Both the position numbers and the translations under genes were made by a program. The notes beneath the pieces are model-generated. The model saw nothing but the letters and a program-made list of their open reading frames with translations. It searched no databases and had not been told where the DNA came from. Below, piece by piece: positions 1,902-21,952 of a DNA stretch of 24,712 nt. The stretch lies in the IMG/VR virus record IMGVR_UViG_2541047887_000002; one strand, written 5' to 3'. The stretch is from a virus. Its lineage: Duplodnaviria; Heunggongvirae; Uroviricota; Caudoviricetes. The first letter of the stretch is position 1. The number at the start of each line of letters is the position of its first letter.

Positions 1902-4900
1902 TCAGGCACTGCATAATCCTCCGTCCCGACGTGATGACTGCATAATTGACACAACCCTGCTGTCGATCAGATCCACCAGTCCCCTGGCTGAGCGCGCATC
2001 TATCTCGCCATTGCTCCCTTGATTCTGAATGCTGATGTGATACACGGGAGAATAAACAAATCCACCGCCACCATTCACATTTCCAATGGCCCTGACCCCA
2101 AGAGAGCCGTCCGCTGCCCGTGTCAGTGGCATGATTGCTTCAGGCCCGGCCTCGCCCATCAGCCCGGCACCTTTCGCAAAAGCAAAATACGTCGGGGTAT
2201 CCACAATGGTGTTACTGTAAGCACTCAGATTTGCCGATGTATAAACACCACCTTTTGCGTTTGCCACTGCACCGGAAAGCCAGTCGCCGACTGTACCAAG
2301 CCATCCTCCGGCACCGGACATGCTTTTGGAAAGTGACTTCAGCCCGTTAACGATGGCAGCGTTCATCAGAATTTTTGAAACTTCCTGGAGAATTGAACTC
2401 CCCCAGTTTCTCCAGTCCACAACATTTCCGGCCAGTGCATCGGAAATATTTGATACCAGCCCGTCCATAGTGGAAACGACAGCATCTGCCGCCTGCGAAG
2501 CATAATCGGTGGCACTGTCTGCCCAGTTCGTCAGTCCCTCCTGGAGTCCGGCATTCCAGTTACTGCGTAAAGCATCAGCCTTTGCATAATAATCCTGCTG
2601 ATCGCTGAGACGCTCTTCCAGATATTTTTCATTCAGAGATTTTTCCTGTTTCCACAGGGCTTCTTCAATTTCTCCGGCCTGATACTGTCTCAGTAGCTCG
2701 TTATTTTTCTGCTCAAACTCCTGCCGGATGCTCCACATTTCCTGAAGTCGTTCACGCATCCGTGAGCCTTCACCATATCCCAGTAACTGAGCCTCATTTG
2801 ATGCTCTGACACTGGCATTACTGTCCGCCAGACTGCTCTCATACGCAGCAAGCTGCTCACGAATCTTTTTCTGGTCGATGAGTGCTGCATTCTGCAAAAG
2901 CGTTTTTTTCTGCGCTTCTGACAGGGTTGATAATTCGCCCTGGCTGACCTGATATTTCATCTTAGCCAGTTCAGTATTCTGCCCTGCCAGTGCTATTTGC
3001 TCTTTTTGCTGTTTAATCAGTTGCTTATAAGTATCTTCTATTTTTTCCGCTTCGGTCTTTTTATGCGCTTTGGGTTTATTTGCCTGGTTATTTCGCCATG
3101 CATCCAGTGAGTTATTTATATAATTCAGTCTTGCTGTCTGATACGCCTCTCCCACAAAGCCGAGATCATCCGCAGCATAACCCAGGCGGGCACGCTCACG
3201 AGCTTCCCCCTTCAGGCGGGACAGAGCCAGTTCGCGCTCGCTGTTATTCAGTGCGGTCTGCTGTTTATCATCCAGGGTTGCCTGTGGTAGCCGTAACGGT
3301 ACATTCACCAGCCCCTGTCGCTGCTGAAGTAATTCATTACCGAGCCCGAGAAGGCGATTAAACTCGGTATGCTGCCCATTCATGATCAACAGGGACTGAT
3401 ACGCTTTGTTTTGTTCCGCTGCCTGTTGACGGATCAACGCCACCCGTCGCTCCTCCAGCCCGGCAAGCACATCCTGAATGGATTGCGCTTTGCCCTGCAT
3501 TTGAGTGAGGCGAGACTGTTCAACTGCCAGTTGATTTGTTGCTTCTGCAAGCCCTTCTGTGACAGTTTTTACCGACGTCATGTGGTTAATCATAAAACCG
3601 TTATCGGTTGTCCAGCCCGGGTTTGCCAGCACATACTGATAGCCAGCAATTTTTTCCTGTAAGGATTTAATCTTACTTTTCTGCTCGTCAATTAACCTGT
3701 TTTGCTCCTTCAGTGCCTGTCGCGTCTTTTCCTCATTATCTGACGCTTCAGGAAGCGACATTGCCGACGTTTTCTGGCGAATTTCGTCGATTGTTGCGGC
3801 ATACTGTCGTGCAGATTCTCTGGCCTGCTCCTGATTCTGATACATCGTGTACCAGGCCGCAGCCCCCAGCATGACGAGTCCCGGCACACCACCAACCAGC
3901 CCCAGCGCGCCACTTAATAAACGACTCCCCACTGACGTAACATTATTCAGCGTTGTCTGTGCCGCTGTTCTGGCCGCAATATTACGGGTAAGTGACACCT
4001 GGGCAGCTGTCAGCTTCGCTTCTGCTGCGGCCTGCCTTTCGGTACCGCGAGCAGCAACAACCGCCTGTTGCGCACGATAAACCGCCGCACGCGCCCTGGC
4101 GGTTGCTATCTGTGTCCCCCGAAGTTGCACTTCAGCAAGAGCCACTTCGTTTCTGGCTGCAGTAATTAATCCGGCAGTTGCAGATCCAGCAGACGACGCC
4201 ATATTGCCAAAATATCGGGCTACCCCGACGGCAACCAGAGCACCAGCAGCGGTTGCCACGGTGTCAATATTGCCTGCAATACCATTCAGCACACCGGAGA
4301 GCGTCTTCGTCACTCCGCTTGCCTCGTTCGCACCACCAACCCAGGCCATAAAGGCGTTTTCAACTTTGGTTGCAGAGGATGAAACCGTATCAGGCATTGC
4401 TGCATATTCATCACGCAACGCCCCAAGCTGACTAATCAGTGCAGGAACAACCTTATCGGCGGTCAGTTTTCCGTTATCCGCCATGGCCTTCAGATCCTTA
4501 CGGGCAACCCCCATTCCCGCAGCCAGCGCACGAATAACACGATCGCCGTTCTCATTCACCGAGTTAAACTCTTCACCGCGCAGCACTCCCTGCGCCAGTG
4601 CCTGACTGAACTGCGTGATCACCGAACTGGCTTCTGCTGTACTGGCACCGGATAATTTCAGGCCCGTGGAGATCGCCTCGGTGACTTTCAGTACCTCCTC
4701 AGAACTGTAACCATACTCCCGCATGGAAGCTGCAGAACGGGCAAAAAGGCTGGCGTTATCAGAAAACGCCGTCCCCGTTCTCTGGCTGATCGCCATTAAT
4801 TCACGCTGTGATGACTGAAAATCATCACTGGACTGTGAGGCCTGCTTCAGACGGGCATTTACTGAATTCCACTCATCGGCGAGAGAAATAAGATGACCGG

Positions 4901-5876: not shown

Positions 5877-6580
5877 TAACTGACGGTAACAGTGCAGGAA
5901 GTAGAGGTCACTTTGTTAACCGGGCTTGCTGAATCAGAAATCTCGCAGGTATATGCACCCGCATCACCGGATACTGCCGATGCCTTACTGAACGTTGCCG
6001 CCGTCTGTCCGGAAACAGGAGAACCACCTTTCTTCCAGACATAAGAATAAGGCGGCACACCACCCGCAGCCTCAACCGCCATTTCAAGTTTCGATCCGGA
6101 AGCAACCCGCAGCGTGCTTTTTAAATCGACCTTCACTTTCAGCGGCTCTGTCGTCAGCACAGGTTTACCTTTCAGGCGCAGAGAAAACGTTGCAGCCACA
6201 ACACCATTGGTTCCTGCAGACCAGGTATGCTGACGCACCTCTGCCATAAAGGTAAATCCGTTGCCTGACGGAAAAATAACTTTAAAGCCATACGTGGTGT
6301 CATTGTCATAGGCACTGCGCAACGCGTTCTGGGCAGCATTGAGGTAAAAGTTGCCTGACATGGAAATCTCTGAAGCAGCACCAAGGCCGTTAATATTTTC
6401 CTGCTCAACAGAACACAGCGTGGTGACATCAATATCCTGCTTTTGTCCTGCAGTAAACTGCACCTCTTTGATTGTACAGCTCAGGCCAAGATAGCTGGCA
6501 GAATCCAGGGTTTCTGCTGTTACCGGTGCAGACGAAATCATAATTTTCGTCAGTTGCGAACGCTCAAAATTAGAGGACAT
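5876..6580 (-). CDS. V: Major tail protein with C-terminal Ig-like domain
   Basis: ATG at 6578-6580 (MSSNFERSQ...) with an AGGAGA Shine-Dalgarno. The C-terminal segment GGVPPYSYVWKKGGSPVSG...AGAYTCEISD resembles a Big_2/Ig-like domain. Confidence 0.85.
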   Translation of the reverse strand: MSSNFERSQLTKIMISSAPVTAETLDSASYLGLSCTIKEVQFTAGQKQDIDVTTLCSVEQENINGLGAASEISMSGNFYLNAAQNALRSAYDNDTTYGFKVIFPSGNGFTFMAEVRQHTWSAGTNGVVAATFSLRLKGKPVLTTEPLKVKVDLKSTLRVASGSKLEMAVEAAGGVPPYSYVWKKGGSPVSGQTAATFSKASAVSGDAGAYTCEISDSASPVNKVTSTSCTVTVS

Positions 6581-7430: not shown

Positions 7431-7765
7431 ACATTCCCCTTCAGGCTGCAGAGTATTTCAAGCCGGGTAGCGCGTGCATCCGGTATTGGTGGACCTTCTA
7501 TACCCAGAATGGCCCCTTTAAATGCACCGGTCAGCACTTTCAGACGTGAAGTCGCTGTCACATCGCGCCGGAATCTCATCCAGACTCTGACCGTAGCCTG
7601 AGCGGTTTCTGCTCCGCCTGAGATTATCTCCCTCCCGCTGATACCCTTAACTTCTGCCCATACGGTAGCTCCCTCCGTCACCGTCTCCACCGGATGCCCT
7701 GACGGAGAGCGGGCGGTGGTGACATTCAGAATAATTACGCGATCACGTAATCTGCCCGCCTGCAT
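7427..7765 (-). CDS. Head-tail adaptor / head closure protein
   Basis: 112-aa ORF with synteny between the connector and gp10-like genes. Overlaps the next gene by 4 nt. Confidence 0.75.
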   Translation of the reverse strand: MQAGRLRDRVIILNVTTARSPSGHPVETVTEGATVWAEVKGISGREIISGGAETAQATVRVWMRFRRDVTATSRLKVLTGAFKGAILGIEGPPIPDARATRLEILCSLKGNV

Positions 7766-7773
7766 GTCTCCTC

Positions 7774-8091
7774 CTACAAAGGAATAAAACGATAAGGCTC
7801 CAGCAGAGAAGAAAAACCAAACGGGACTGGTGCCTTGCTGACATCTGAGGAATTTTCCCGGTTTTCGTACCAGTGCCCGACCAGCAACATGAGCGCCAGC
7901 AAAACATCATCAGCTATAAGCACCCCTTCAGGATCACCTTCCGGCACCGTCTCCTCATAAAGCTTACGGTTGATAAAATTTTCTGCCTTGCGGCAGGCAG
8001 CCCGGAAATACAGCATCAGTAACTCATCATCAGTTGCATCATCTGTATCAATACGGCACTGCGCCCTGAGTTTTTCCACTATTGCTGCCAT
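7774..8091 (-). CDS. gp6-like head-tail connector protein
   Basis: ATG at 8089-8091 (MAAIVEKLRAQCRIDTDDATDDELL...) with an AGGAG Shine-Dalgarno. The longer track ORF would overlap the capsid gene, so this internal start was chosen. Confidence 0.75.
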   Translation of the reverse strand: MAAIVEKLRAQCRIDTDDATDDELLMLYFRAACRKAENFINRKLYEETVPEGDPEGVLIADDVLLALMLLVGHWYENRENSSDVSKAPVPFGFSSLLEPYRFIPL

Positions 8092-16632: not shown

Positions 16633-16704
16633 TGAAGTGGTTTACTGAATTTGGCCACCTGAACAGAGGTGATATGCTCACCTCAGAACAACACAGGTGC
16701 CATA

Positions 16705-18093
<1,389 letters not shown>

Positions 18094-18230
18094 AGCCTCA
18101 CCTCCGCAGCGAACGGATGGCGTAGTTATAAGGGGAGCGAAAAAGAAAGAATGCGCGATTGCGCAATATGGTAACGTCAGGGTATTATCCACTGGCTGAA
18201 TAGATCACTTCACGTTTTTTGTTCCTTGCC

Positions 18231-18258
18231 GCCCGTATCCATATGCGGGCTTTTTTTT
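18231..18258 (+). terminator. Plus-strand intrinsic terminator-like hairpin upstream of the holin
   Basis: 8-bp stem GCCCGUAU / AUAUGCGGGC followed by eight U on the plus strand. Confidence 0.4.
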
Positions 18259-18264
18259 GCATGT

Positions 18265-18294
18265 AAAAAGGCCCCAACACATGTGCGTGGGGCC
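18265..18294 (-). terminator. Minus-strand intrinsic terminator-like hairpin
   Basis: Minus strand reads GGCCCCACGCACAUGUGUUGGGGCC followed by UUUUU. Confidence 0.45.
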
Positions 18295-18494
18295 TGAGAG
18301 TATACATGGTTTCAGTCAACTGCATGGTGCCGGGTGCCTCCCGGTGAATTCAGTACCAGCACCTGAATCCGCGATTATCCCATATACCTACTCGCTGATT
18401 GCCCCTCCGCACAGGGGGATTCACCATGCCAGTTTCTTTTAACAAACTCCCCGCAAAACAGACAACTGTCAACCGTCTGAATTGTGAGACATTT

Positions 18495-18520
18495 AAAAAA
18501 AAGGCCCGCAAAAGCGAGCC
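18495..18520 (-). terminator. Intrinsic terminator after the tRNA cluster
   Basis: Minus strand reads GGCUCGC-UUUU-GCGGGCC followed by eight U, about 15 nt after the 3' end of the last tRNA. Confidence 0.55.
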
Positions 18521-18534
18521 GGGAAAAATAAGTC

Positions 18535-18611
18535 TGGCGCGTTGTACTGGATTCGAACCAGTGACCGATTGCTTAGAAGGCAATTGCTCTGTCCGGTTGA
18601 GCTAACAACGC
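18535..18611 (-). tRNA. tRNA-Arg (anticodon UCU)
   Basis: Hand-folded cloverleaf: acceptor GCGUUGU/ACAACGC, D-stem GCUC/GAGC, anticodon stem AUUGC/GCAAU with loop CUUCUAA, T-loop UUCGAAU, encoded 3' CCA. Confidence 0.75.
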
Positions 18612-18624
18612 AGGGTACAGATAA

Positions 18625-18701
18625 TGGACCGCCATCGAGGACTCGAACCCCGCGCAACCAGCTTCGAAGGCTGGTGCTCTATCCTGATGAGCTAATGGCG
18701 G
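18625..18701 (-). tRNA. tRNA-Arg (anticodon UCG)
   Basis: Hand-folded cloverleaf: acceptor CCGCCAU/AUGGCGG, D-stem GCUC/GAGC, anticodon stem CCAGC/GCUGG with loop CUUCGAA, T-loop UUCGAGU, encoded CCA. The 5' end is uncertain by 1 nt. Confidence 0.65.
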
Positions 18702-18708
18702 TATGTGA

Positions 18709-18784
18709 TGGTGGCCCTTGCTGGATTTGAACCAGCGACCTGGCGATTATGAGTCGCTCGCTCTCACCTCTGAGCTAAAGGGCC
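18709..18784 (-). tRNA. tRNA with anticodon CAU, most likely tRNA-Ile2 (ileX/ileZ-like); elongator Met not excluded
   Basis: Sequence GGCCCUUUAGCUCAG...GACUCAUAAUCGC...GGUUCAAAUCCAGCAAGGGCCACCA closely resembles E. coli ileX as I recall it. Anticodon loop CUCAUAA. Confidence 0.7.
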
Positions 18785-18904
18785 GGGCGCAGGATAATAA
18801 CGTTACGAAATCAATGTTGCAAGCATTCAAAAATCACCTGGTTAAAAATCACCCTTAGCTCCTCCACCAGCGCATTCACCATGTCTATCCGAGATAAGTG
18901 GCAC

Positions 18905-18934
18905 AAAAAAACCCGCTTGTGGGCGGGTTTTGTT
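18905..18934 (-). terminator. Bidirectional intrinsic terminator, candidate tR' of the late promoter
   Basis: Stem AAACCCGC / GCGGGUUU flanked by an A-tract and a U-rich tract, about 60-90 nt downstream of the Q-like stop codon. Confidence 0.55.
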
Positions 18935-18994
18935 TGCTTTTGCCATCACGTACAAAATCGGCAAAATATCAGATTTGCATGAAATATATGCCTT
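18935..18994 (-). promoter_or_regulatory. Candidate late promoter pR' and qut region (position-based only)
   Basis: AT-rich gap between the Q-like stop and the terminator. I could not place convincing -35/-10 hexamers by eye. Confidence 0.3.
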
Positions 18995-19684
18995 TCAATC
19001 TACTTTTGCAACACTTTGCTTTGAAAATGCCGCCTTTTGTTTTGAACGTGTTCTCATTACAAACAATAAAGCCTCACTATCCAGTCGTTGAAAAATGTGT
19101 TTCATTGCAACCCAGTGACGAGTAAATGTTTTGGACCAGTTTTTAGTTGTCACTCCCGCCAGTAATGCCAGCTCCTGGTATTCATAACCTTCCCCACCAA
19201 AAAGTTCTGCTTTTACTGCCTGCGCCGCCAGCCAGATTAATTTTTTCAGGCGTTCCTGCGTTTTCCCTGCAATTTTTCTGGTACCGGATTGAGTATTAAA
19301 TTCATTCCACGCCCACTGTGTTATCGCGATCTGATATTCCCAACAAATACTCCCGCCGTAACACCACAACAACCAGGCTTTATGATGCTCTTCAAGAGAC
19401 AGCAAAGCCCGCCGCCATGATGATGTCGAAAACTCAACCGGGCTGACCAGGGCAATTGATGAGCCATTCGCCAGTGATTGTTTTCCCGGGATTGGTGGAT
19501 TATCCCGCGTTATCATTTTTCCAGTCACTTCATCGCGGTACCGGATTTTTTTTCGCCTGTAACGCCCTGTATCGAACATGGCATTCTCCTGCCAGGCTTC
19601 AAGCTGACCTTTTGTTGCCCCACTCAAATCAGCGGTGGCGATAATGAGCTGCTCACGCACAAACTGTAAATACTGGTTATTCAT
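18995..19684 (-). CDS. Putative late-gene antiterminator (Q-like), assigned by position
   Basis: 229-aa ORF with ATG at 19682-19684 overlapping the RusA stop (ATGA). It lies directly upstream of the terminator, tRNAs and lysis genes. No clear zinc-finger motif, so the identity is tentative. Confidence 0.5.
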   Translation of the reverse strand: MNNQYLQFVREQLIIATADLSGATKGQLEAWQENAMFDTGRYRRKKIRYRDEVTGKMITRDNPPIPGKQSLANGSSIALVSPVEFSTSSWRRALLSLEEHHKAWLLWCYGGSICWEYQIAITQWAWNEFNTQSGTRKIAGKTQERLKKLIWLAAQAVKAELFGGEGYEYQELALLAGVTTKNWSKTFTRHWVAMKHIFQRLDSEALLFVMRTRSKQKAAFSKQSVAKVD

Positions 19685-20046
19685 GCGCACTCCAGTTCTG
19701 TGATTTTTATCCCCAGCCGCCCACCAGGAACGAGCTGACCGCGCACAATATTGATTTCATCAAACTGCTCGTCGTCTATAAGTAGTCCGGCATGCGTCAG
19801 CGCATCCAGTGGTGCCTTCAGGATATTGTCCAGGTCACGACGGCGCTTATCCGGTGGCTCTGCAATAATCTTTATCGCCAGCCTTCCGGACAGGTTTAAT
19901 TTCAGCCGCTGCTGGCGAACAATTAGCGCCACATCACGGCGATAACGCTTTCCGGCTTCCGAGATGAAATACGTATTGCCATGACGTCGCCAGTAGGTAT
20001 TCACCGTCGGCGGGTAAGGCAAAACAAATTCTATGCGTTCAGTCAT
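19681..20046 (-). CDS. rusA: RusA Holliday junction resolvase
   Basis: 121-aa ORF with PYPPTVNTYWRR and DKRRRDLDNILKAPLDALTHAGLLIDD motifs, matching RusA (compare DRRRRDLDNLQKAAFDAL in E. coli RusA). Confidence 0.9.
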   Translation of the reverse strand: MTERIEFVLPYPPTVNTYWRRHGNTYFISEAGKRYRRDVALIVRQQRLKLNLSGRLAIKIIAEPPDKRRRDLDNILKAPLDALTHAGLLIDDEQFDEINIVRGQLVPGGRLGIKITELECA

Positions 20047-21543: not shown

Positions 21544-21699
21544 TTACTCCTCAGGTTCGTAGACTGTGAAGACAGCGACCTCCGTCTGGCCGGTTCGGAT
21601 TCGTACCTCGCAGAGGTCTTTCCTCGTTACCAGTGCCGTCACTATGACGGTTAAACAGATGACGATCAGGGCGATTAACATCGCCTTTTGCTGCTTCAT
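21544..21699 (-). CDS. hok: Hok-family type I toxin (HokD/RelF-like, 51 aa)
   Basis: MKQQKAMLIALIVICLTVIVTALVTRKDLCEVRIRTGQTEVAVFTVYEPEE is near-identical to E. coli HokD as I recall it. AAGGAG Shine-Dalgarno upstream. Confidence 0.85.
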   Translation of the reverse strand: MKQQKAMLIALIVICLTVIVTALVTRKDLCEVRIRTGQTEVAVFTVYEPEE

Positions 21700-21756
21700 A
21701 GCCTGCTTCTCCTTGCCTTTCGGCACGTAAGAGGCTAACCTAGATTTGCCGTTCAT
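21544..21756 (-). CDS. mok: Mok-like overlapping reading frame (translational coupler for hok)
   Basis: In-frame upstream extension of 70 aa from ATG 21754-21756, as in hok/mok/sok loci. Confidence 0.4.
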   Translation of the reverse strand: MNGKSRLASYVPKGKEKQAMKQQKAMLIALIVICLTVIVTALVTRKDLCEVRIRTGQTEVAVFTVYEPEE

Positions 21757-21952
21757 AGATTGAGCCTCAGATTAATGTTAAGCGTCTTGCAGGACGCGTA
21801 ATGTTAACTGGGGCTTTTCTCTATCTGCCTTTGGTGTTCATGCCTGAGGCAGATAGCCTCAAGCACCCGCAGCAATTCTACTTAAGTTAGATAAGCTTTT
21901 CTATGGTATTCTCTCAGCGTCCCGTAAATACAGTCTCGGCTCATCATTTTTA

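Follow-up and report, generated by a model that had tools for sequence, protein, structure and literature searches.

Convergent pairs of Hfq-bound small RNAs (sRNAs) have been described in the prophages Sp3, 4, 5, 9, 10, 11, 15, and 17 of enterohemorrhagic Escherichia coli (EHEC), where they occupy the moron site downstream of the late promoter PR′ (PMC4104026). In Sp4 of strain Sakai, the pair consists of EcOnc05 on the plus strand and EcOnc08 on the minus strand, located at Sakai positions 1179806-1180010 (PMC4104026). The late region of the Shiga toxin (Stx) phage 933W/Sp5 carries, in this order, the late antiterminator gene Q, the tRNA genes ileZ-argN-argO, stx2AB, an STnc100-family sRNA (EcOnc27, identical to sRNA103), AsxR, nanS-p, and S, and in enteropathogenic E. 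coli (EPEC) E2348/69 the sRNAs PasD1 and PasD2 are found next to Q and holin genes (Pearl Mizrahi et al, 2021). Here, we describe the corresponding locus in the IMG/VR record IMGVR_UViG_2541047887_000002, a 24,712-nt stretch of Caudoviricetes DNA (hereafter the window), in which the lambda-like prophage genes lie on the minus strand. We consider it very probable (roughly 85%) that the interval between Q and the holin gene is the late-operon leader of an Sp4-like, stx-negative lambdoid E. coli prophage, in which small transcription units are stacked between a Q-controlled promoter and the holin gene. This arrangement is ordinary and already known from EHEC prophages, and it alters nothing in current understanding.

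A first-pass annotation, made from the letters of the window alone and starting at 18094, the base directly before the holin ATG, had placed three tRNA genes with anticodons CAU, UCG, and UCU downstream of a Q-like gene and a candidate tR′ terminator and had likened them to the ileZ-argN-argO cluster of Stx phages. All of this was borne out. The Q-like gene is of the PF06323 type, and both a PR′-like promoter and a tR′ hairpin were found beside it. ARAGORN identified exactly three tRNA genes in the window, in agreement with the Rfam tRNA model, and these show the same order, the same short spacers, and the same location between Q/tR′ and the lysis genes as in Stx phages. Mean column identity of the trio to ileZ-argN-argO of 933W, Sakai Sp4, and Stx2a_WGPS6 is 97%.

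The last tRNA gene is separated from the holin start by 442 bp, for which the same annotation had listed about 440 bp without an open reading frame (ORF), containing three terminators and further stem-loops and nothing else. Our ORF check and PHROG searches likewise yielded no credible protein gene, and all hairpins are present on re-analysis. The interval is nevertheless not limited to terminators and stem-loops, since Rfam places a full-length STnc100 gene inside it (RF02076; gathering score 47), which confirms the suggested alternative of a small structured RNA. The stem-loops noted at about 18407-18423 and 18335-18350 are hairpins P1 and P4 of this RNA. Of the three terminators, those of the tRNA operon and of STnc100 stand as late-strand elements; the third, at 18231-18250, is followed by a U-tract on the plus strand alone and therefore ends a convergent transcript, not the late one. 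The number of consensus terminators is not above chance (four found versus 2.3 +/- 1.5 in shuffled sequences); taken singly, the hairpins are much more stable than shuffled versions (z -3.7 and -3.8).

Sequence comparisons with Sp4 gave the most extensive match: window positions 18787-18153 align contiguously with Sakai Sp4 1179416-1180046 (88% over 644 nt), an alignment that covers the trio, the tRNA terminator, and both RNAs. Like the window, Sp4 (ileZ1-argN1-argO1/EcOnc05/EcOnc08) has an STnc100-type sRNA without cargo before it, followed by a convergent sRNA, with the same order and spacing, and its tRNAs are annotated with the same anticodons. Sp4 differs in carrying another STnc100 3′ linker/terminator module, a convergent RNA that is only about 75% identical, and distinct Q and upstream genes. 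In addition, the large esterase-like ORF ECs_1088 follows the sRNA pair in Sp4, whereas in the window the holin gene follows at once. The window shares with 933W the tRNA trio, the tRNA terminator, the STnc100 5′ domain, and the geometry of the convergent pair. Unlike 933W, it has no stx2AB upstream of STnc100, no esterase gene downstream of the sRNA pair, another Q type, and another STnc100 3′ module. Its convergent partner is also not AsxR, as it lacks both a match to the AsxR Rfam model and the conserved AsxR 3′ sequence. PasD is Hfq-dependent and 172-173 nt long (PMC8550237), compared with about 167 nt predicted for the short form of the STnc100 RNA in the window; a fold and an origin in common with STnc100 have been reported for PasD (Zhu, Shabalina & Storz, 2026 preprint). 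The PasD seed/terminator module (UGUGAG...CUGGCUGCGCAUG; probe of PMC8550237) has no match in the window within three mismatches; the window carries the STnc100/EcOnc05 sequence type and not the PasD module. As neither PasD nor AsxR/AgvB matches were obtained, we do not file the RNAs of the window under those names.

The STnc100 RNA combines a structured 5′ domain, in which a closing helix encloses several hairpins, with a 26-nt linker that is a candidate seed and a terminator. Across 11 distinct STnc100 copies from Escherichia, Shigella, Enterobacter, and Leclercia genomes and Stx phages, 98.3% of the cells of the 5′ domain are paired, compared with 37-45% for slid controls, and seven pairs show changes on both sides across genera, in a set in which helix 5 (a hairpin) and half of helix 1 (the closing helix) are fixed by the search pattern. 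The underlying exact-pattern scan with one genome per species returned only nine loci, which is enough for covariation, not for distribution. In contrast to the far more conserved 5′ domain, the 3′ linker and terminator are exchanged between copies as a module, which fits the published view that STnc100 and PasD have a common fold and different seeds (Zhu, Shabalina & Storz, 2026 preprint). The copies diverge completely right after the closing helix (...CACCATGCA|), at the joint 18321/18322, as seen in E. coli M15 from 2770-2881 onward; recombination seems to swap the linker/terminator module at this fixed joint.

Published probes link the gene directly to RNAs that have been observed in relatives. 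The EcOnc05 Northern probe (Tree et al, 2014) is an exact match at window 18366-18400, the EcOnc06 probe matches with one mismatch, and the STnc_100 PCR primers of PMC12370729 match exactly. EcOnc05, at about 222 nt, as well as EcOnc27 and EcOnc06 are discrete, Hfq-associated RNAs according to crosslinking and Northern blot (Tree et al, 2014; PMC4104026). Furthermore, STnc100_4 was seen by Northern blot and STnc100 copies are transcribed in EDL933 (PMC5331693), and EcOnc27 (sRNA103) overlaps STnc100 downstream of stx2B (reviewed in PMC7873438). The predicted promoter of the short form has positional equivalents in 933W (TTGCCT-18-TAAAAA) and in Enterobacter (TTGACC-18-TAATTT or TTGACT-18-TAGATT), and ortholog Northern sizes suggest that a longer form with a start near 18484 may also exist. 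We also considered that the GGA and Shine-Dalgarno-like motifs of the STnc100 hairpins might act as a decoy for CsrA or ribosomes, but abandoned this idea since Enterobacter has lost the P1 motif. An 888-bp contig of Xanthomonas pisi DSM 18956 is identical to the STnc100/AsxR region of 933W over the approximately 300 bp compared, and most likely represents assembly contamination by E. coli Stx-phage DNA.

On the opposite strand, the terminator, fold, and homology point to a convergent RNA of about 64 nt (-17.4 kcal/mol, z -3.76). Its terminator ends at 18258 and abuts the STnc100 match, which ends at 18259; the equivalent positions in 933W, where STnc100 (plus strand) occupies 3778-3983 and AsxR (minus strand) 3985-4037, are 3985 and 3983. 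The RNA is 72-75% identical to the element at the same position in Sakai Sp4, VT1-Sakai, and many Stx2a phages. Both hexamers of its predicted promoter are kept in VT1-Sakai and Stx2a_EC3283 and align with the AsxR promoter of 933W; the AsxR 5′ end was mapped by 5′ RLM-RACE in O157, in which the AsxR sequence is the same as in 933W (PMC4104026). In Sakai Sp4, EcOnc08, which belongs to the EcOnc08/21/42 group (Tree et al, 2014), was detected by Hfq crosslinking and Northern blot as an RNA of about 271 nt (PMC4104026). Its crosslink peak (1179938-1180010) spans the aligned sequence between the U-tract end and a point a few bases beyond the predicted -10 element, an extent that supports a short RNA despite the longer reported band. 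Conservation of window 18150-18262 (+) is bimodal among 5426 complete E. coli genomes, with at least 99% identity in 97, 60-80% in 673, and none between. The candidate is unannotated in every listed matching genome record.

The plus-strand candidate resembles AsxR and AgvB (RF02703 and RF02702) in its position and orientation relative to STnc100, in the alignment with the AsxR promoter, in its small size, and in its 3′ terminator. It differs from them in lacking sequence or model similarity in their conserved 3′ region of about 42 nt, the consensus of which has no match in the window within three mismatches; sponge activity of the plus-strand RNA is only an analogy. Predicted duplexes of the plus-strand RNA with STnc100, and of both RNAs with the holin leader, did not beat shuffled sequences (fractions 0.25-0.96) and therefore provide no evidence of mutual regulation or holin regulation by base pairing. 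A small hairpin in the holin leader (18152-18165) overlaps the -35 element of the predicted plus-strand promoter, and 933W and Sp4 have a stronger hairpin at the equivalent place.

Two cargo sites adjoin these RNA genes, and both are empty in the window. Site A, between the tRNA terminator and STnc100, is where Stx phages carry the stx genes; the order in Stx2 phages is tRNA terminator, stx2AB, STnc100. Alignment of the flanks (window 18849-18494 to WGPS6 6001-6356 and window 18491-18401 to WGPS6 7690-7779) places the 1.33-kb stx2AB cassette at a junction of 2-3 bp at about 18492-18494, and the downstream boundary of the stx1 cassette in VT1-Sakai falls at the same point. The distance from stxB to STnc100 is 75 nt in Stx2 phages, and that from stx1B is 79 nt (see also PMC12370729). 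No stxA or stxB is present between the tRNAs and STnc100 in the window, where the flanks adjoin without an ORF. As these flanks are directly adjacent, the toxin site is empty and not decayed. Of 5426 complete E. coli genomes, 1035 have the contiguous stx-free form, O157:H7 and O104:H4 among them. Relative to the empty site, the stx2 cassette of 933W is flanked by a short direct repeat (ATCTGCG at its start, about 2412-2418, and ATCTGTG directly beyond its end, about 3741-3747; compare window position ~18492), which could be due to chance or be a trace of cassette acquisition. Site B, the space from the sRNA pair to the holin gene, is occupied by nanS-p-like esterase genes in Stx phages and by iraM and a DUF1737 gene in E. 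coli M15, whose prophage is otherwise 98.5% identical to that of the window. Two deposited phage genomes (PhiR49_2 and vB_EcoS-611R1) and 97 complete E. coli genomes carry the compact form with 99-100% identity, and the region is a minimal, intact configuration. The tRNAs and the STnc100 domain may serve as homology anchors for cargo exchange.

We propose that the leader is built from four units. The first would be a short PR′-tR′ leader, the second the ileZ-argN-argO operon with its own promoter and terminator, and the third an Hfq-binding STnc100-family sRNA of the EcOnc05 type, in which a conserved multi-hairpin 5′ domain is followed by a variable linker that probably serves as the seed, and then by a dedicated terminator. 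The fourth would be a convergent sRNA of about 64 nt of the EcOnc08 type, on the opposite strand, where 933W has the anti-sRNA AsxR. In the lysogen, each unit would be driven by its own sigma-70 promoter and halted by its own terminator. Because each unit has a promoter-like site and a terminator of its own, the tRNAs and sRNAs could be made while the lysis genes are silent. Upon induction, RNA polymerase modified by Q would start from PR′ and pass all late-strand terminators into the holin gene. The tRNAs would add decoding capacity for AUA, AGA/AGG, and CGA/CGG, which are far commoner in phage than in core genes. The sequence data establish what the tRNAs, STnc100, and the flanks are and where they lie, as well as the empty junctions and the codon counts; the promoters, the transcript ends, expression in this strain, a trans-acting role of the sRNAs, and read-through by Q are inferred.

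Several observations weigh against this reading. Both sRNA promoters are weak relative to the consensus and fall below the threshold of the promoter scan; as the scan detected neither, both were read by eye and by homology. Northern sizes of STnc100 orthologs conflict (about 222 nt for EcOnc05 and 235/247 nt for EcOnc27, versus 172-187 nt for PasD, EcOnc06, and EcOnc13), so that the 5′ end in the window may lie anywhere from ~18484 to ~18430. The EcOnc08 band of about 271 nt is far longer than the predicted 64 nt, and the published EcOnc08 probe, located a short way upstream of the crosslink peak, has no match in the window within four mismatches. At E values of up to 5 over 17850-19100, the plus-strand RNA matches neither the AsxR nor the AgvB Rfam model, and no Esr41 or other sRNA family besides STnc100 was detected in this interval. 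The literature contains no established STnc100 target. The benefit of the tRNAs is deduced from codon counts against one sample of 29 core genes. Finally, an ISEc52 insertion (see below) probably cripples lysis, and the late-operon logic may no longer operate in this prophage.

The first-pass annotation had also offered the 440 bp as a decayed cargo slot, that is, a remnant of a lost cargo gene, an idea favored by the absence of a credible ORF and by the toxin genes located near here in related phages. We regard it as practically untenable, as the alignments refute it: the stx cassette flanks are directly adjacent with nothing left over, and the DNA in Stx phages to which the 440 bp are homologous is that 3′ of stxB, not stx itself. 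Two conserved sRNA genes lie there, with the same location 3′ of stxB in Stx phages; the score of 140 bits against a curated RNA family, the compensatory changes, and the near identity in 97 genomes and a deposited complete phage genome likewise contradict decay. The empty cargo slot therefore holds for the toxin site, which is literally empty, and not for the 440 bp themselves. Similarly, the alternative of a conserved promoter or leader region with no relation to cargo sites is half right, as the region is conserved and functional yet adjoins two such sites. It is also very improbable that the gap encodes small proteins, namely of 68 aa (18399-18605, +), 46 aa (18325-18185, -), or 45 aa (18062-18199, +). 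Two of these ORFs match PHROGs of unknown function (phrog_27294, E 1.4e-45; phrog_19985, E 1.2e-12), hypothetical proteins are annotated here in PhiR49_2 and by the NCBI pipeline PGAP, and some STnc100 copies carry ribosome-profiling footprints (PMC5331693). However, the 68-aa ORF reads antisense across a tRNA gene, the tRNA terminator, and the promoter of STnc100, the 46-aa ORF crosses two terminators and lies within the module that is replaced in relatives, and an ORF from the AUG of the closing helix has 25 codons here compared with 11 in 933W. PHROGs built from automatic gene calls are expected on conserved DNA whether or not the ORFs are real.

A further explanation, which we consider improbable although less so than the two above, is that the STnc100 domain and the hairpins act only in cis, within the late-operon leader, either as a transcription barrier passed by Q-modified polymerase alone or as a processing or stability element of the lysis mRNA, with the discrete RNAs of other strains as by-products. 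It would account for the fact that STnc100 is always encoded on the late strand, after Q/PR′ and before the lysis genes, which holds even in Enterobacter, where a prophage keeps the order Q, STnc100, holin/lysozyme with another Q family and without tRNAs. It would also suit a 5′ domain that is far more conserved than the proposed seed, and a literature without a validated direct STnc100 target. Against it, STnc100 comes with a terminator of its own and with a promoter-like site whose position is conserved, orthologs are abundant, Hfq-bound, and Hfq-stabilized in uninduced cultures (PMC4104026; PasD, PMC8550237), and PasD forms many RIL-seq chimeras with mRNAs. Cis and trans roles are, moreover, mutually compatible. 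A bolder reading, which we consider rather unlikely, takes the RNA of about 64 nt, a distinct allele, as an anti-sRNA or sponge with a host target unlike those of AsxR/AgvB; together with the window-specific linker at 18321-18296 it would give this non-EHEC prophage a regulatory specificity of its own, and the STnc100 5′ domain might separately have an undescribed cis or protein-binding role. The stacked late-operon leader remains the reading that we prefer, and its features are listed in Table 1.

Table 1. Positions in the window of the features between Q and the holin gene, in late-strand order
Feature	Position	Strand	Basis
Late antiterminator Q gene	18995..19690	-	Pfam PF06323 Phage_antiter_Q, E 8.5e-91
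PR′-like late promoter, TTGCAA-17-TATATT	18983..19011	-	consensus scan; putative function
tR′-like intrinsic terminator, stem 18931-18908 and T-run	18901..18931	-	hairpin scan
tRNA-operon promoter-like site, TTGCAA-17-TATTAT	18794..18822	-	consensus scan; predicted
tRNA CAU, ileZ ortholog (tRNA-Ile2)	18709..18784	-	ARAGORN; Rfam tRNA 70.6 bits
tRNA-Arg UCG, argN ortholog	18625..18701	-	ARAGORN; Rfam tRNA 56.2 bits; alignment
tRNA-Arg UCU, argO ortholog	18535..18611	-	ARAGORN; Rfam tRNA 70.1 bits; alignment
tRNA-operon intrinsic terminator, GGCTCGC-TTTT-GCGGGCC and U8 (stem 18520-18503)	18495..18520	-	fold -14.0 kcal/mol, z -3.66
Unoccupied cargo junction A	18492..18494	.	flank alignments to Stx2 phages
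Predicted STnc100 short-form promoter: TTGTCT 18465-18460, 18-nt spacer, TGtTAAAAG (-10 18441-18436), start ~18430	18436..18465	-	by eye
STnc100-family sRNA (EcOnc05 type)	18259..18458	-	Rfam RF02076, 140.2 bits, E 2.8e-31, model positions 1-206 of 206
STnc100 structured 5′ domain: closing helix 18429-18422 with 18329-18322, enclosing several hairpins	18429-18322	-	
STnc100 hairpin P1	18418-18402	-	
STnc100 hairpin P4	18344-18330	-	
STnc100 single-stranded linker, candidate seed, 26 nt	18321-18296	-	
STnc100 terminator and U-tract	18295-18269	-	
Predicted convergent sRNA, ~64 nt, EcOnc08 type	18195..18258	+	terminator, fold, homology
Convergent RNA terminator, followed by U8 (18251-18258)	18231-18250	+	consensus scan
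Predicted convergent RNA promoter: TTGCGC 18159-18164, 18-nt spacer, TATTAT 18183-18188	18159..18188	+	by eye and homology
Small hairpin TGCGCAATCGCGCA, then T-rich run, in holin leader	18152..18165	-	hairpin scan
Class II holin gene, dual-start MKSM motif	17728..18093 (ATG 18093-18091)	-	translation; PHROG holin families

The Q product has 231 aa, and identical Q DNA in E. coli M1/5 is annotated as "bacteriophage antitermination protein Q". The PR′-like site directly after Q occupies the same place as in the 933W annotation. The predicted PR′-tR′ leader RNA comprises about 75 nt (18901-18976, minus strand), and its 76-nt fold has an energy of -24.3 kcal/mol (z -3.25). By position it corresponds to the StxS sRNA of Stx phages, although its Q/PR′ type is a different one. 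Rfam matches of this leader to isrK (22.7 bits) and isrJ (24.5 bits) are below threshold and were treated as chance.

The tRNA operon has annotated counterparts in the 933W record, which lists "pT; putative tRNA promoter" at the equivalent place just upstream of ileZ and marks the same terminator element. All three genes encode CCA. ARAGORN labels the CAU tRNA as Met, from the anticodon alone; it differs from ileZ of 933W by a single base, and the identical gene is annotated as tRNA-Ile in M1/5 (PGAP) and as ileZ1 in Sakai. Its acceptor stem reads C4-G69 and C5-G68, which we take to be TilS determinants. The gene is an ileZ ortholog, whose product would probably read AUA after lysidine modification. 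For the role of these tRNAs we draw on the 933W record and on general background (Plunkett et al, 1999; Schmidt et al, 1997), the literature on ileZ, argN, and argO having yielded nothing usable.

Codon use was compared between late genes, early genes, and the core sample. Per 1000 codons, the respective values are 6.1, 14.8, and 3.8 for AUA; 6.1, 7.4, and 1.0 for AGA; 5.2, 9.2, and 0.2 for AGG; 6.1, 7.4, and 3.0 for CGA; and 14.4, 13.6, and 3.7 for CGG. The five codons are 1.6 to 24 times commoner in phage genes than in the 29 core genes. The suggestion that the tRNAs decode rare Arg and Ile codons and boost late-gene translation therefore holds for the codon enrichment, and not for its restriction to late genes: AUA is more frequent in early genes, and enrichment in both classes means that the tRNAs fit a phage-wide bias.

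The value of this analysis is mainly one of annotation correction, as apparently empty DNA between phage tRNAs and lysis genes carries two sRNA genes. Genome pipelines leave such DNA blank or fill it with spurious "hypothetical proteins", although both RNAs are known from EHEC and EPEC. The small ORFs of the gap have no family match, or match only PHROGs of "unknown function" that lie antisense to a tRNA gene and an sRNA. In public annotations and phrog_27294, ORFs 18399-18605 (+) and 18281-18439 (+), antisense to argO and STnc100, are called hypothetical proteins; such antisense ORFs look like systematic gene-calling artifacts on conserved non-coding DNA. The toxin insertion point is fixed to within 2-3 bp, and this junction, together with the stx-free form present in about one-fifth of complete E. 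coli genomes, should be useful for tracking the movement of stx cassettes between prophage backbones. The literature already raises the questions of which targets STnc100 and its convergent partner have and of what the conserved 5′ domain does.

Downstream of the leader, the holin gene is interrupted in its last codon by a 1250-bp insertion sequence (IS) of the IS3 family (window 16633-17882), flanked by a 3-bp target duplication (GAG at 17885-17883 and 16632-16630) and annotated as ISEc52, IS911-like, in matching genomes. The insertion converts the holin from 71 aa into a fusion of 121 aa and separates it from the YdfR, lysozyme, and spanin genes. This prophage is therefore probably lysis-defective. 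In M1/5 and other genomes, the Q-to-holin region and the flanking prophage genes are present without the IS.

Finally, the early region contains a hok/sok-type type I toxin-antitoxin locus (Rfam sok, 111.7 bits, 21694-21868, minus strand), and the ORF at 21544-21756 (-) that overlaps the sok match is annotated as hokD in M1/5.

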